Shown: piece by piece, positions 1 to 6,000 of the stretch | Layout: every line of letters begins with the position of its first letter | Numbering within the stretch: position 1 is the first letter of the stretch | From: Candidatus Bathyarchaeia archaeon | GTDB taxonomy: Archaea; Thermoproteota; Bathyarchaeia; 40CM-2-53-6 | Assembly (NCBI GenBank): GCA_049517415.1 | Contig: JBEKSC010000045.1 | Span: 1 to 12,911 of the forward strand | Direction of reading: 5' to 3' | Length of the DNA stretch: 12,911 bases | Position numbers: made by a program

Positions 1-3000
1 CAAAGAGAACGTAGAGGCGGTGAAACGCGCGAAGGATCTATCTCGAGGAGCCTTCCCACCCGAAGCTAAGAAGGGCGGTGAGAGAGAACTCTCCTACGTA
101 AGTTAACTCGCCCAGTGTTCGCAATGAAGGTCATGTGTAACCAATGCGGAAAGGTGCTGGATCTTATGGTGGCAACGTCCTTCTCAGTGGAAGAGTCCGG
201 ACAACTGAAAACATACCATTTCTGCACAGATGGCCACATGAGGGAATTTGCCCGAAAGAAAAGGCTTCCATTAGGCAAGTATTAACTGCCCGCGCAACCA
301 TACTAACTGCCGTAAGCGCAGGACTATTGGATGTCAACCTCCGAAGATTTGCATTCAGCCTCTACAACTTTCGCTGCGTTAGGTAACGTCGTGCGGCTTC
401 GCATTCTACTGATGTTGATGGATAGCAAGAAACCCTTGCACATTACTGCCGTCGCGAGCAACCTGAAAATGGATTACGGCGGGATTTACAGACACGTCGA
501 AGTTCTAAGGGAGGCAGGCCTGATACAGGTCTACGAAGTGGGTAGGTCGAGGGTACTCTCACCTCTCAACGTTGATCTTCTGCGCGACCTCGTTTCGAAA
601 GCGAAAAACTTCAACAAAAAGCGATAATCTAATGTCGTAATTGATATAATATTATGCCTATTTAGTACAAATCTCATAATGTAACAGTTAAGTCATGATG
701 TAAGAGTTAAGTAGTTGTGACTTATTGTGCGCACAATTTGTGGTTTCGTTGGCCGAAGGACTGTTTGCCAGACGAAGCGTGGCGCTAACTGGTGCAGCCG
801 TTTTTGGGAGCTTGGCGGCTCTAACAACGATTGTGCTTCCTGCCAACATTCAGCCCGCATTCCCATTATTGAGCTTCCTACGTTTTGATCCGGCTGAATT
901 GTTCGATGTCCTAGCCTTCTTGATCTTCGGTCCTATACCCGCGCTGATAACCGCCGTCGTTCACTGGGCAATCCTTGCAGAAACTGGAACTAATGGTATC
1001 CTAGGCCCGACGGGGAAGTTCGCCGCAGTCTTGTCGACGCTGTTAGGGCTCTGGTTAGGAAGTATGGCCTATCGGCGCATAGCACAAAAGAGCACTCGCG
1101 CTTCTCTGGCTCTGGGCACGATGCTGGGTTTTGCAGCCTTAGCTCGAATCGGGTTGATGCTTGTCGTGAACTATTTCATTTTCACGTACATTGGGCCAGT
1201 TGTTTTTGGAATCAATTACCTCAGCTTCAGCCAAAAATCGCTAGCCGCGGTGGGAATGCAGTTCGCGAACTCTTCGCAGGTACTTTGGGCGATGCTTCTC
1301 TTCACGAGCATCTTCAACGGCATGCACGCGGCCTTCTCCGTGATAATCCCTTACATGATTTTCACGCCCTTGAGTTTGAAGGTCCCTGAAATCGCCTCAG
1401 GCCATCCTTGGATTAGCAAGTTCACATCCCACTAGTGAAACGCTCCCGACTGAAATTACGCGGGCCTTTCCTTGATCGTTGCCTTAGCGGGAGGAGTTGG
1501 AGCAGCAAGATTCCTCGAAGGCTTAATTCGAGTAGCTCCTCAGAGAGACATCACGATCATAGGAAATGTTGGGGATGACACCAACGTGTACGGCCTCCAC
1601 GTCTCCCCAGACTTGGACATAGTCACTTACACACTCGCTGGCCTTGTTGACCAGAGAAAAGGCTGGGGCTTTCGAGGCGACACATTTCATTGTCAAGCGT
1701 TGCTTCGAAAATACGGTTTTGAAACTTGGTTCAACCTAGGCGACCGCGACCTAGCAACCCACATCTATCGTACGGAAGAACTTCACCGAGGCAGGCGGCT
1801 GTCGGAAGTTACTGGAGACCTAGTTTCGCGTTTGGGGCTTCGAGTGAAGCTGCTTCCTGCAACCGACGATTTGCTCCAAACATACGTTCTATCTGGAGGC
1901 CGACAAATGCACTTCCAACAATATATGGTGAGACGAAAGACGAAGCCAAAGGTTCAAGGAGTAGTTTTTCGCGGCACTGAATCCGCCAAGCCAGCGAAAC
2001 ATGTTGCCGAGTCAATCACGAGAGCAAGAGGCATCATTGTCTGCCCAAGCAACCCGATTGTTAGCATCGGCGCAATCCTCGCCGTTCGTGGCATCAAGTC
2101 CGCGCTCAGGAAAACTACGGGGAGGGTTGTTGGAATTAGCCCAATCATTGGCGGTAAGACAGTAAAAGGGCCAGCTGACAAATTGATGAAGGCAGTGGGA
2201 ATCGAGGCGAGTGCATTTGGAGTAGCCGAATGTTACAGTGGCTTCTTGGATACGCTCATAATCGACCGCCTCGACAGGGAACTTGCACCAGAGATCAAGG
2301 CCATCGGGATTAAACCGATTGTGACGAACACGCTCATGAAAACAATGGCTGACAAAGTTCGTTTGGCGAAAGTTGCAATAAGTGAATTCCGTCGTTGAAA
2401 ACTCGTTCACGTCAAGTGGGACGTGTGCATGCAATCGTCCCCTTGAACGTTCTCAAAAAATCGAAAGCACGACTTTCACCTATCCTTAGGCCGGCTGAGA
2501 GAGAGCAGTTAACTCTCGCTATGCTGAACGACGTTCTCTCCGCCTTGCGGATGGCGAAGCGGATTCATTCGGTAACGGTTGTTAGCGGCGATAAGAGCAT
2601 GCGTAGAATCTGCAAGCGTCTCGGAGCTAGTTTTCTCTGGGAGGGGAGAAGACGTGGCCTCAACAGGGGGGTCAAATTAGCTGTTAGACACGCTCAGCAG
2701 AGAGGTGCCTCCTCCGTTCTTGTGATTCATTCGGATCTCCCGCTTCTCAAAGCACTGGAAGTTGACACGTTCCTTAAGCGATCCGAGGGATGCTCAGTGG
2801 CGCTTACACCATCCAAAGACCGTGATGGAACTAACGCCCTGCTCATGAGTCCACCACAGGTGATCCGACCAGTCTTTGGCAAAGACAGCTTCCGGAAACA
2901 CCTGTCGCTCGCCAAGCAGAGAAAAGCTCGCAGCAAAGTGTTGCTGTTCAATGGCATTGGTTTCGACGTTGACACGCCAAGGGATGTCGTTGAGTTGATG

Positions 3001-6000
3001 CGTCGGCCGTTGCGGAATGAAACCGGACGAGTCCTACGGGCTTTTCGAAAACGGAGTTAGCGGTGCGCCGAAAGAGACTCAGGGCAAAGGAATTTAGAGG
3101 CAAGCGGGAGTGTTTGGGTGGGGTGTTTGAATTAGCATCACCTAGGGAAAGCCACGATAAAGTGCTCCAGCTTCTGGAGCAGCATACTAAGTGGTTTTCA
3201 GAATCAATTCCGCTGATTGCATCGGAGAACGTTCCCAGCCCCGCGGTTCGCGAAGCCATCATTTCAGACTTCGGGAATCGCTACGCGGAATAGGCAAGCC
3301 GATCAGGCTTCTGCCTCCGTAGGGATGGGTTGGAGAACGCGTATACGCGGGCTGCGTATACATAGACCAAGTTGAGCGGCTCTGCATAGACCTAGCAAAG
3401 GATCTATTCCGAGTCGAATTCGCGGACGTTAGGCCAGTCTCTGGAGTTTGCGCAAACCTCGTGGTCTACACCGCTTTCACAAACCCCGGCGACCGCATGC
3501 TCACTTTGGCTATACCAAACGGCGGCCACATCTCGAGTGGCCGCAAAGATTTCTCTGGAACTGCAGGCTCGGTCCACGGCTTGGAAGTGGAATACTTTCC
3601 CTTCGACCGCCATGAAATGAACATTGACGTCGATAAGGCAAAGCAGAAAATTGAGAAGATGACGAAGGAGGAGAATAAACCGCCCAAGCTTGGGATGTTC
3701 GGTGGGAGCCTCTTCCTCTTCCCCCAGCCCCTGAGGGAGCTAGCTGAGTCGTTACATAATGTTGGTGCGACGGTGGCTTATGACGCGGCTCACGTCGCTG
3801 GGCTCATTGCGGGAGGAATCTTCCAAGACCCGCTGAGGGAAGGTGCTGACGTAGTGTGCCTGAGCACCCACAAAACGCTCTTCGGCCCGCAGGGAGGGGC
3901 GGTACTCTCATTCGAGAAATACGCGGAGCAAATCAAGAAGGCAACGTTTCCATCGAACACGAGCAACCACCATCTGCATAACCTAGCCGGGAAAGCGGTT
4001 GCTTTCGCGGAAATGTTAGAGTTCGGAAAACAGTACGCTAAGCAAGTTGTGGCAAATGCCAAAGCCCTGGGTCAGGCGTTGCATGAACGCGGCCTTAACC
4101 TTCTGGGCGAGCACAAAGGTTTCACTGAAACGCACCAGATCGCCGTTGACGTAACCAAGTACGGCTTGGGTGGAGACATGGAGAGAGCACTTGAAAGCGC
4201 CAACATAATCGTCAATCGCCAACTCTTACCCGGGGACATTCAGGCGGGAAGGCATTACCAAAACCCAGGCGGCATCCGCATAGGCGCCTCGGAGATTACA
4301 AGGATCGGGATGAAGGAAAACCAAATGGTCGAAGTGGCTGAGCTAATCAAAAGAATCGTCATCGACAAGCAAGACCCCAAGAAAGTCAAGGCCGACGTGT
4401 TAGAGTTTAGAAAAGATTTTCAGAAGGTTCACTACTGCTTCGAGAGCGCAAAGAAAGCCTACGAGTACATCAAAGTACGCTAACAGGTGCTTATATAACG
4501 ATGAATCCCAAAGTCACCGTCATAACCGGAGCGAGCAGCGGCATAGGGGCCGCACTAGCGAAGGAGCTGGGGGCTAGGGGCCACCAGTTGGTTATTGGAG
4601 CCCGTCGAGAAAAGGAACTGAAAGAAGTCGCAGCCCATACTGGAACTGACACGGTACCAGTTGTTGTCGATGTTACCCGACGGCGAGACATCGAACATTT
4701 ACGTGATGTTGCAATTGAGAAATTCGGTCACGTTGATGTTTGGGTGAGCAATGCTGGCCGCGGCTCAGGGAAGACCGTAATGGAGTTGACGGAGGCGGAA
4801 TTGGATGAGATGATTGCGGTTAACCTGAAATCCGCTTACTATGGGATGCAAACCATCGTTCCCCATTTTCAACAGAGGGGCGAGGGACACCTCATCAACG
4901 TATCCTCCTTCCTGGGCAGAGTTCCTTTGGCAACCTACCGGTCCGCGTATAACGCGGCCAAGGCGGGGGCGAATATGCTGACCACCAATTTGCGAATGGA
5001 CTTGAGGGTCAAATATCCGGGGATTCATGTTTCACTAGTTCTAGCGGGGTTCGTTGATACCGATTTTCACAAAGTCGCAGCCACACCTTTCCCCGTAAAG
5101 GCGGGAACCCGCGTCGGCGAAGCGGTCGTTCAATCCGCAGAAGAGGTCGCGAAACAGATTGCATCCCTGATAGAGCATCCGGTCGCTGAACTCTACACCA
5201 ACCCAGGCCAAAGGGATCTTACGGTGCGATACTATCAAGACGTAGGCGCATTCGAAGAACGAATGGCCCAAAGATAGTTCTCTTTAACTTAGGTGTTCGG
5301 CGAGGCTCATCATAATCGATGGTACAATCCTCAACCACAATTGCAACAGGCTTGCTCAAGAGCTAAACTTAGACGGCCATAGGAGGCTTATGTGGTTTCG
5401 ATGCCGGTTCTGCGCCCAGGGGAAATGTACAGGGAGGTTGTTTTGGGGGATGGCAGGAAGGCTGTGCTGCGGTCTCCTGAGTGGGATGACCTAGACGACT
5501 TTCTAGGTTTGATAAACGAGTTAGTTGATGAACATGCCGACATTCTAAGAAGCACACACTCTACGCGGGGTGAGGAGGTTGATTGGTTAGCGGACCGGTT
5601 GACTGCCATAGAGAAGGGTAGCCTTATCGCATTAGTTGCCGAAGTAAACGGGAGAGTTGTTGCGAGCTCCGACGTCGCCCAGAGGACTCCGGAAAATCCG
5701 CAACACAACCATGTTGGGGTCCTTGGCATCGCCATACTGAAGACTGCCAGGGGGCTTGGGCTCGGAAAAGTGTTAATGGATTCACTCCTTGAACTCAGCA
5801 AAAAAGCAGGTTTGAAAATAATTATCCTAGACATGTTCGCCACTAACAGGGTGGCAAGGCGCCTATACGAAAAGGTCGGATTTGTAGAGGTCGGGAAGGT
5901 ACCTAAGGCCATCAACCAACACGGAAAATACATTGATCTAATTCGTTTTGCCATCGAAATCTGAAAGCGGGATTGAGCATTATCTTCCGGCGTCTGCTAT

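Follow-up and report, generated by a model that had tools for sequence, protein, structure and literature searches.

The Bathyarchaeia archaeon examined here, G000, is very probably an FO auxotroph that lives by salvage: it retains the enzymes that build the tail of F420 and has neither the FO synthase that makes the deazaflavin head group nor a riboflavin pathway. A RibU-like ECF S component, P0001, is encoded directly before cofD. It is a strong and testable candidate for an importer of the F420 head group, which would be the first one known. The window analysed is the whole of contig C45 (12.9 kb) from this uncultured organism of peat or soil, whose assembly comprises 2,646,868 bases in 59 contigs (completeness 100, contamination 6.86).

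F420 and riboflavin genes in the genome

In comparison with the canonical archaeal F420 pathway, for example that of Methanocaldococcus jannaschii, G000 shares the CofC, CofD, CofE and Fno equivalogs but is without the first half, that is, CofG/CofH and the supply of pyrimidine substrate from the riboflavin pathway. An earlier note on this DNA had assigned cofD and cofC to positions 1472-3060, and both products do lie above their equivalog cut-offs (Table 1). The CofD match to TIGR01819 is full-length, covering profile positions 1-300 of 301, as is the CofC equivalog match, which exceeds the curated TIGR03552 cut-off. The three CofE ligases of that note were recovered at three places (295.2, 241 and 172.3 bits), two of the three above the cut-off of 180.65, as were Fno (258.3 bits, cut-off 149.8), a CTP-dependent riboflavin kinase (146.3 bits) and Bac_luciferase matches at 18 places. 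Eleven of the 18 luciferase-like proteins pass an F420-specific NCBIfam LLM cut-off, and for all 18 the best match is an F420-named LLM family.

Table 1. Features of the S-cofD-cofC locus on the window.
Feature	Position	Strand	Evidence
ArsR/SmtB-type winged-helix regulator	331..627	+	NF033788 38.7 bits (below cut-off 55); PF25212 32.2; PF12840 29.7
RibU-like ECF S component P0001, family A1	725..1435	+	family profile and AF2 fold
cofD, 2-phospho-L-lactate (or enolpyruvyl) transferase, acceptor FO	1472..2398	+	TIGR01819 340.3 bits (cut-off 257.45); PF01933 163.5
cofC, guanylyltransferase giving the activated phospholactyl donor	2395..3060	+	TIGR03552 160 bits (cut-off 105); PF01983 104.8

The reported absence of CofG and CofH from G000 was borne out. 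The best CofH score is 20.7 bits, on contig C30, against a cut-off of 374.1, and the best CofG score is 16.3 against 213.35; the CofH of a member of the same genus, G182, found no match in G000 as a tblastn query. M. jannaschii, the positive control of the F420-pathway searches, was detected. Riboflavin synthesis is absent as well, none of the five families searched being found in G000: DHBP synthase (PF00926), GTP cyclohydrolase III (PF05165), GTP cyclohydrolase II (PF00925) and RibD_C (PF01872) gave no match at E <= 1, and lumazine (DMRL) synthase (PF00885) was not found. Because FO synthase and riboflavin synthesis are both missing, the organism must take up FO and riboflavin, and since the retention of cofC and cofD makes sense only if the compound acquired is FO itself, FO should be the species that enters. 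The core of the earlier reading, an F420 user with its tail-building enzymes kept and FO and riboflavin imported, is thus supported, and it applies likewise to the nearest relative, G209. Three corrections to it, described below, concern the choice of importer, the distribution of FO and riboflavin synthesis within the genus, and how widespread the state is in the class.

Identity of the gene preceding cofD

The earlier note had proposed an FO importer among three PF07155 paralogues. These are present and clearly above cut-off (112.7, 84.3 and 35.6 bits), with a fourth match at the cut-off (about 26.3-27.0 bits), and yet the best candidate is instead P0001, along with a paralogue of it that contig C14 encodes. 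P0001 lies just outside 1472-3060, an overlooked RibU-like gene whose reading frame ends 36 nt upstream of cofD; the start of cofC in turn overlaps the stop of cofD by 4 nt, and the three genes may well be co-transcribed. Position 725 is the start of the longest reading frame (TTG); translation could also begin at 740 (GTG, giving the 231 aa of public gene calls) or at 749. Orthologues of cofD occur in 20 of the 22 other genomes of the genus at 62-94% identity, and of 20 further genus loci examined by blastp, 17 have an ArsR-type orthologue (74-95% identity) in the corresponding place. This protein may regulate the S-cofD-cofC operon.

P0001 itself has no match in Pfam or NCBIfam even at E <= 10, including PF12822 and PF07155. 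Its paralogue (G000:C14:34588-35280, 39% identical to P0001) matches PF12822 at 40.6 bits, some P0001 orthologues carry precomputed PF12822 matches, and the JGI pipeline labels orthologues 'riboflavin transporter FmnP'. A profile of family A1 (25 members) matches the RibU chains 3p5n (E 4.1e-15) and 5kbw (E 1.4e-10). The AF2 model of P0001 (pLDDT 91.9, pTM 0.87) has as its best Foldseek matches TmRibU 5kbw_A (target TM-score 0.80, probability 1.00) and SaRibU 3p5n_A (0.79), followed by ThiT and BioY. By profile and predicted fold, then, P0001 is a RibU-like ECF S component. A distinct RibU-like family, u5, enters the comparisons below; its profile matches 3p5n at E 8.6e-8.

Like RibU of Staphylococcus aureus (S. 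aureus 3P5N) and of T. maritima (5KBW/5KC0/5KC4), P0001 is predicted to be a small multi-helix membrane protein (target TM-scores 0.79-0.80), and the two have in common a loop motif D-x-x-E and a G-P after helix 1. Five CbiQ/EcfT genes of G000 exceed the cut-off and provide potential EcfT partners; no energising module is encoded beside P0001. P0001 is only 17-19% identical to RibU, however, and with its 228-236 aa it is some 40-60 residues longer than the solved RibU chains, which have 181-190 aa. Unlike RibU, it is encoded before cofD-cofC, and genomes that have FO synthase have lost it; because of this adjacency and this loss its substrate would seem to be FO, not riboflavin.

Linkage to cofD across the class

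We considered a sample of 201 Bathyarchaeia genomes; linkage was scored on 92 cofD loci of the class (77 CofH-less, 15 CofH-bearing). Of the 201 genomes, 90 have CofD above cut-off and 18 CofH, and lumazine synthase was found in 4, so the FO-synthase-less state is not special to G000 and is a class-wide trait. An A1 or u5 gene is found no more than 791 nt from cofD at 35 of the 77 CofH-less loci as against 1 of the 15 CofH-bearing ones. These linked S genes come from 11 taxonomic families and do not form one clade in the tree of the protein family, and they occur in several gene orders: S-cofD-cofC, cofD-cofC-S, cofD-S-cofC, and S divergent from a nitroreductase-cofD pair.

In a count uncorrected for relatedness, 1 of 18 CofH-bearing and 105 of 183 other genomes give a strong match to A1 or u5. 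The CofH-bearing genomes belong to few lineages (family f13, part of f4, f9 and one subgroup of the genus), so independent contrasts are few and Fisher tests overstate the association. In family f13, 13 of the 14 genomes match CofH (11 above cut-off), only 2 have lumazine synthase, and none has A1 or u5. A1 and u5 also turn up outside the F420 tail-builders: of the CofH-less genomes, 50 of the 79 with CofD and 54 of the 100 without it have them. In genus g4 Fno and u5 are each present in 6 of 6 genomes and CofD in 1 of 6; in family f21 the figures are 18 of 43 for Fno, 30 of 43 for u5 and 4 of 43 for CofD. Conversely, 18 genomes having CofD and lacking CofH carry neither A1 nor u5, mostly in family f16 and some of them nearly closed assemblies, and FO must therefore enter these in another way.

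Reciprocal loss within the genus and in family f4

It had been claimed that four near-closed genomes of the genus lack CofH. These four (G205, G209, G210 and G211; 3-10 contigs, 96-100% complete) are indeed without it, although the genus as a whole is not uniform. Among the other 22 genomes of the genus, four (G182, G208, G215 and G216) have CofH above cut-off, and G204 has a CofH fragment cut by a contig end; the genus is thus polymorphic, some species having a cofG-cofH island. Where the genus has FO synthase it is the ordinary cofG-cofH pair, beside GTP cyclohydrolase III in G208 and G215. No homologue of the island genes of these two genomes exists anywhere in G000, and G209 (3 contigs, 100% complete) has the same locus as G000 at 92-97% amino-acid identity and no CofH. 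With near-closed relatives also lacking CofH and the island genes also absent, the missing CofG and CofH are not a draft gap.

The arrangement ArsR-S-cofD-cofC is intact in 14 of the 23 genus genomes, 13 of which are CofH-less. In the CofH-bearing G208 and G215 the S gene is reduced to two ends around an internal deletion, and nothing of it is left at this slot in G216 and G204. Three genus members break this pattern: G182 combines CofH with an intact S gene, and neither is seen in G203 (93% complete) or G152 (80% complete). Lumazine synthase matches occur in 9 of the 23 genus genomes, four of which were seen to have a full riboflavin operon. The species of the genus that lost the S gene carry the riboflavin operon, and because of this the loss alone cannot separate FO from riboflavin as the substrate. 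G202, G213 and G218, with a full riboflavin operon and no CofH, have kept both A1 copies.

The earlier claim of cofG-cofH in another family of the order agrees with f4, where CofH occurs in 5 of 9 genomes. Two genomes of f4 without CofH, G091 and G170, have an intact u5; at exactly the corresponding place G095, which has CofH, retains a u5 relic (residues 7-68 and 121-155), and lumazine synthase was not found in it. This case is independent of the S-gene decay in the genus. S genes and FO synthase are thus distributed reciprocally.

Alternative explanations

The S component before cofD might import riboflavin or another flavin, FO arriving by diffusion or by another carrier and the adjacency to cofD reflecting a shared regulation of flavin-type cofactor supply. 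We regard this as a less likely though serious possibility. In its favour, riboflavin-binding RibU is the best match of the P0001 family in both sequence and structure, the JGI name for the orthologues is a riboflavin transporter, and the organism, as a riboflavin auxotroph, needs such an importer. A1 and u5 occur in CofD-less genomes too, the S gene was lost by genus species having the riboflavin operon, and G182 keeps it despite CofH; diffusion of FO across membranes has moreover been reported (PMC8498797). Against it, the three riboflavin-operon genomes without CofH keep both A1 copies, while CofH-bearing riboflavin auxotrophs have no intact A1 or u5 (0 of 14 genomes in f13, the relic only in G095, none in G078). 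For riboflavin, G000 could use its three to four further S components of PF07155, and a riboflavin carrier has no known functional reason to be encoded by cofD in 11 families and several gene orders.

That FO is made after all, by an enzyme unrelated to CofG/CofH and from a precursor outside the riboflavin pathway, would make import unnecessary and would account for the 18 CofD-bearing, CofH-less genomes without A1 and u5; missing homologues are compatible with such an enzyme. It is nevertheless very unlikely, as the pyrimidine precursor route is missing too (no GTP cyclohydrolase II/III, no RibD_C), the genus uses the ordinary cofG-cofH pair where it has an FO synthase at all, and S-gene decay in exactly the cofG-cofH genomes would be unexpected if every species made FO. 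Still less probable is that CofC, CofD and CofE build their tail on some other imported head group such as a flavin, giving an F420-like product that is not F420. The adjacent importer does resemble riboflavin binders and no FO source is encoded, but CofC, CofD, two CofE and Fno all pass F420 equivalog cut-offs, most of the luciferase-like proteins (11 of 18) exceed F420-specific ones, and the 5-deaza ring is required for hydride transfer by the F420 enzyme families. An artefact, with C45 a contaminant of the bin or cofG-cofH lost in an assembly gap, is hardly credible. The contamination estimate of 6.86%, the mere 12.9 kb of C45 and the cofG-cofH of some genus members speak for it, whereas the order ArsR, S gene, cofD, cofC, SHMT, SDR recurs inside a 1.4-Mb contig of G209 (92-97% identity) and in large contigs of G210, G211 and G200, four near-closed genus genomes are without CofH, the remaining F420 genes lie on many different contigs of G000, and the genes flanking cofG-cofH in the G208 and G215 islands are absent from G000 as well.

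Proposed route and its implications

Taken together, the comparative evidence on the ligand of P0001 favours FO, and we consider an FO importer somewhat the likelier role for this protein, judging from gene context and distribution. P0001 would capture FO outside the cell and deliver it inward with one of the ECF energising modules of G000, presumably through EcfT/EcfA coupling. CofC would make the activated phospholactyl donor, and CofD would transfer this to FO to give F420-0, which would be trapped in the cell because it is charged. The CofE enzymes would then add glutamates, and Fno and the many luciferase-like enzymes would use the cofactor. Riboflavin, like FO, would be taken from the surroundings. 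Since diffusion of FO through membranes has been reported (PMC8498797, citing Bashiri 2010), a transporter is not strictly required; the same review lists the Bathyarchaeota simply as predicted F420 producers.

The proposed scheme resembles a known one. Its logic is that of vitamin salvage: riboflavin uptake by an ECF S component followed by riboflavin kinase is salvage with metabolic trapping. In both cases a high-affinity binder would deliver a vitamin-like ring compound without charge, and the enzyme acting on it next would retain it by adding a charged group, with CofD in the role of the kinase; they differ in that the trapping enzyme here is a phospholactyl transferase and the proposed cargo a deazaflavin. 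In the literature searched we found no description of an S component paired with a phospholactyl transferase for trapping, and no FO or F420 transporter; a major review does not treat salvage.

A wider reading, which we offer tentatively and would not yet bet on, is that A1 and u5 are the first deazaflavin importers and that the class divides into cofG-cofH 'makers' and a large majority of 'takers' living on FO leaked by other microbes, so that in peat, soil and sediment FO would be exchanged as a vitamin. A bolder extension is that in genomes with Fno and u5 but without CofD, such as those of g4 and f21, finished F420 may enter through these carriers. If P0001 carries FO, this would explain F420 chemistry without FO synthase in a globally abundant archaeal class, and surveys that score F420 by CofG/CofH alone, or by CofC/D/E alone, would misjudge makers and finishers. 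It would also establish a new substrate class for ECF transporters and provide a means of supplying FO to hosts engineered to produce F420. For the so far uncultured Bathyarchaeia, the analysis points to a cultivation requirement for FO and riboflavin.

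Gene order around cofD and the F420 inventory

The assembly of the Bathyarchaeia genome under study (G000) comprises 2.65 Mb in 59 contigs, with a completeness of 100 and a contamination of 6.86, and the window is the entire contig C45. The gene for the membrane protein P0001 ends 36 nt ahead of cofD, and the last 4 nt of cofD are shared with cofC; both exceed their equivalog cut-offs, as the earlier note had it. A single 222-nt RNA contig (99% alike), from one peat metatranscriptome run, falls on cofD at 2078-2299; no contig from this run falls on the P0001 gene or cofC, and one contig in all speaks neither for co-transcription nor for silence. 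Further along, the serine hydroxymethyltransferase (SHMT)-like ORF follows a stretch of some 400 nt that holds no long ORF; relatives have one or two SHMT pieces at this place. The ORF may be truncated or frameshifted, or it may be a shortened paralogue. At 5388-5964 each strand bears an ORF, the two being 188 and 190 aa long and overlapping; the minus-strand ORF has no match in Pfam and NCBIfam searches, and relatives retain a plus-strand ORF of about 190 aa at the corresponding position.

Table. Features of the window in order and, in the last line, a gene of riboflavin operons in the genus
Feature	Position	Strand	Remarks
ArsR-type regulator	331-627	+	
Membrane protein P0001	725-1435	+	236 aa; without family match
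cofD	1472-2398	+	TIGR01819, 340.3 bits (cut-off 257.45)
cofC	2395-3060	+	TIGR03552, 160 bits (cut-off 105)
SHMT-like ORF	3461-4483	+	SHMT profiles matched only from position ~94-102 on
SDR	after SHMT-like gene	+	
YczE	after SDR	-	
Lipoyl synthase, then 2-oxoacid dehydrogenase E1alpha/E1beta/E2 set	after YczE	+	
Amino-acid permease	last in window	+	interrupted by contig end
Amidohydrolase/deaminase-like gene	L196:2165-3397 (G202); also L195:6104-7216		

The earlier note described this organism as an F420 user that makes neither FO, the deazaflavin head group of F420, nor riboflavin, and this scavenger reading is well supported. The best match to CofH in G000 reaches 20.7 bits (cut-off 374.1) and the best match to CofG 16.3 bits (cut-off 213.35), while DHBP synthase, GTP cyclohydrolase II, GTP cyclohydrolase III and RibD_C have no match at E <= 1, and a search for lumazine synthase was likewise without result. 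Fno (258.3 bits), the CTP-dependent riboflavin kinase (146.3 bits) and the 18 luciferase-like genes are all present as described; such F420-specific LLM families are the best match for all 18 of these genes, and 11 score above the cut-off of one. CofE was indeed found at three places, but only two of these exceed the cut-off, and the three reported RibU-type S components were recovered as three clear PF07155 matches, with a fourth at the cut-off. Five EcfT/CbiQ genes are present. The scavenger state is a class-wide trait: among the 201 genomes of our class sample, CofD exceeds its cut-off in 90 and CofH in 18, and lumazine synthase was found in four.

Absence of the FO synthase

The absence of CofG and CofH in G000 is real and not an effect of the draft. 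Among the near-closed genomes of the genus said to lack CofH, the nearest relative G209 (three contigs, 100% complete) and G205, G210 and G211 (3-10 contigs, 96-99% complete) all proved to be without a match. G209 shares the order ArsR, P0001-type gene, cofD, cofC, SHMT, SDR, at 92-97% amino-acid identity; because this synteny lies inside a 1.4-Mb contig, and large contigs of relatives agree, C45 is not a contaminant. We considered the possibility that a cofH had fallen into a gap at a contig edge, as the neighbours of cofH in G182 have their counterparts at the beginning of G000 contig C5, but their orientation puts the cofH side inside C5.

In G208 and G215, cofG-cofH lies within an island bearing CN-hydrolase and GTP cyclohydrolase III genes, and homologues of the island genes were sought in G000 with none found for any. 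The island (L171:4367-10173 in G208, L172:2059-7381 in G215) also holds several genes without a family. The context of the pair in G182 is unlike that in G208 and G215, and in both G182 and G216 its neighbours are other than the island genes; thus the FO synthase pair looks mobile within the genus.

A RibU-like S component beside cofD

P0001 has no match in a Pfam search even at E <= 10, and its orthologues in public gene calls (228-232 aa) are named "hypothetical protein" by NCBI and "riboflavin transporter FmnP" by JGI. Its paralogue on contig C14, 39% identical, exceeds the PF12822 cut-off (40.6 bits). A profile of 25 members of its family, A1, matches two S components for riboflavin, 3p5n at E 4.1e-15 and 5kbw at 1.4e-10. 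The best structural matches of the AlphaFold2 model (pLDDT 91.9) are TmRibU, with a target TM-score of 0.80, and SaRibU, with 0.79; ThiT and BioY rank below them. Profile and model together identify P0001 as a predicted RibU-like S component. The same assignment is predicted for a second, distinct family, u5, whose profile matches 3p5n over its full length (E 8.6e-8); its members match PF12822 weakly in 14 of 17 cases and PF07155 in five of 17 (best E 2.1e-8), and the hhalign probability between u5 and A1 is 85.6%. The earlier note had guessed that one RibU paralogue imports FO; we move this guess from the PF07155 proteins it named to the unannotated gene at 725-1435, which is the better candidate.

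A search for related loci with P0001 alone returned only three close relatives within the genus. We took cofD with roughly 4 kb of flanking sequence in either direction from the genomes of the class sample with CofD over the cut-off, plus G182 and G143, and grouped the neighbours by clustering the ORFs in these 92 loci. The commonest are cofC (53 loci), a nitroreductase-family gene (32), A1 (20) and u5 (17). An S gene lies at most 791 nt from cofD in 35 of 77 loci of CofH-less genomes versus one of 15 of CofH-bearing genomes (Fisher p 0.004, overstated because the genomes are related). The genus has the order S-cofD-cofC, whereas genera g2 and g3 have cofD-cofC-S, families f2 and f31 have cofD-S-cofC, and in family f19 S is divergent from nitroreductase-cofD; two g2 genomes have u5 in place of A1 in the same slot. 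Linkage persisting through rearrangement is a classical sign of shared function, and since it persists here through such different gene orders, it is reasonable to expect that the S gene shares a function with cofD, whose product is the FO-consuming enzyme.

Other genes recur at these loci. The nitroreductase-family gene (PF00881, 125 bits; for example L049:2620-3243) directly adjoins cofD in its 32 loci, although none is found in the C45 window; bacterial FbiB has a nitroreductase domain, and by analogy this gene could encode the reductase for dehydro-F420-0 to F420-0. In nine loci of families f19, f29 and f7 (for example L053:5058-5351), the neighbour of cofD encodes a conserved protein, rich in Cys and about 95 aa long, without family match. 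Ten loci from family f1 (genera g2 and g3) encode a helical protein, roughly 130 aa long, between glmS and cofD.

Reciprocal loss of the S gene and the FO synthase

Within the genus (23 genomes), CofH exceeds the cut-off in G182, G208, G215 and G216, and G204 has a fragment of it at the end of a contig. PAC2-ArsR-[S]-cofD-cofC is a conserved locus, and of the 14 genomes with an intact S gene there, 13 are CofH-less. Between ArsR and cofD in G208 and G215, the first 36 and 18 codons and the last 12 and 15 codons of the S gene remain, respectively, the remnants of an internal deletion, and no trace of the gene was found at this locus in G216 and G204. The C14-type paralogue is likewise missing in the eight genomes of the genus without a cofD-linked copy.

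Another family of the same order, f4, shows the same pattern of S-gene loss independently of the genus. The CofH-less G091 and G170 have an intact u5 between cofC and purA, whereas in the CofH-bearing G095 the gene at this spot is reduced to a remnant (residues 7-68, which are 79% identical, and residues 121-155); G149, G161 and G078 are without u5. Across the class, one of 18 CofH-bearing genomes has a strong A1 or u5 match versus 105 of 183 other genomes, although the Fisher p of 2e-5 is overstated, because the genomes are related and the CofH-bearing ones represent about four independent lineages.

FO or riboflavin as the cargo

The main question is which of the two is carried, since riboflavin is both the ligand of the solved relatives and a compound that the organism needs. 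Three genomes of the genus (G202, G213, G218) have a full riboflavin operon (DHBP synthase, lumazine synthase, GTP cyclohydrolase III, amidohydrolase, RibD_C, creatininase-family gene, riboflavin synthase) and no CofH, yet retain both A1 copies, which favors FO; on the other side, the species of the genus that lost the S gene also carry the riboflavin operon. The decay of u5 in G095 points to FO as well, as this genome has gained or kept an FO synthase but has no lumazine synthase. Of the 14 genomes of family f13, 13 show a CofH match, which exceeds the cut-off in 11, and neither A1 nor u5 was found in any of the 14; with lumazine synthase in just two, this family must take in riboflavin in another way. 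In G000 itself, the three to four PF07155 carriers are left for riboflavin.

Several observations run against FO. G182 has both CofH and an intact S gene. This genome has a completeness of 76%, and both cofD and cofC appear frameshifted in it. Each is present there as two overlapping pieces (L134, G182:C7:102080-110986), reflecting either assembly-error frameshifts or decay of tail genes in a cofG-cofH genome. Neither CofH nor S gene was found in G203 (93% complete) and G152 (80% complete), and 18 genomes with CofD and without CofH, mostly of family f16, showed neither A1 nor u5. Among CofH-less genomes, A1 or u5 occurs in 54 of 100 without CofD versus 50 of 79 with it. The A1 tree contradicts a separate clade of cofD-linked members, and as its backbone also lacks resolution, transport specificity cannot be read from it. 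Finally, a 2021 F420 review states that FO passes membranes unaided (PMC8498797), so that a carrier would not be strictly necessary.

Some of the carriers in genomes without CofD occur together with Fno. Among the genomes lacking both CofD and CofH, an S gene is present in 20 of 25 with Fno versus 34 of 75 without, and one such S gene adjoins an FrhB-like gene. We speculate that the Fno-bearing, CofD-less genomes use a deazaflavin whose tail they seem unable to build. In genus g4, Fno is over the cut-off in six of six genomes, CofD in one and u5 present in six; the corresponding counts in family f21 are 18, 4 and 30 of 43.

In certain members of the genus the riboflavin operon holds, between GTP cyclohydrolase III and RibD_C, an amidohydrolase/deaminase-like gene (PF01979, 179.5 bits, with a weak A_deaminase match). 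Its product is a candidate pyrimidine deaminase, an activity to which, to our knowledge, no gene has been assigned in archaea.

A proposed route for FO

The 2021 review counts the Bathyarchaeota as predicted producers of F420 and, in the passages searched, has nothing on salvage, scavenging or uptake (PMC8498797). A 2024 survey takes CofG plus CofH as the F420 marker and does not place the Bathyarchaeota among the makers (PMC11459464). A full-text literature search found no publication that describes an FO carrier or, for Bathyarchaeia, the salvage of FO.

ECF S components are well known, and what we propose as new is FO as cargo; comparative support is good for the gene at 725-1435 as a candidate FO importer. 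What the data show directly is the set of genes, the fold of the S component, its linkage to cofD and its reciprocal distribution with the FO synthase. We infer that it would be co-transcribed with cofD and cofC, perhaps under the ArsR-type regulator. FO leaked by producers would be bound by the S component and imported with a shared EcfT/EcfA module. CofC would then provide the activated donor from which CofD adds a phospholactyl group to FO, trapping the cofactor inside the cell, and CofE would extend the tail for use by Fno and the LLM enzymes.
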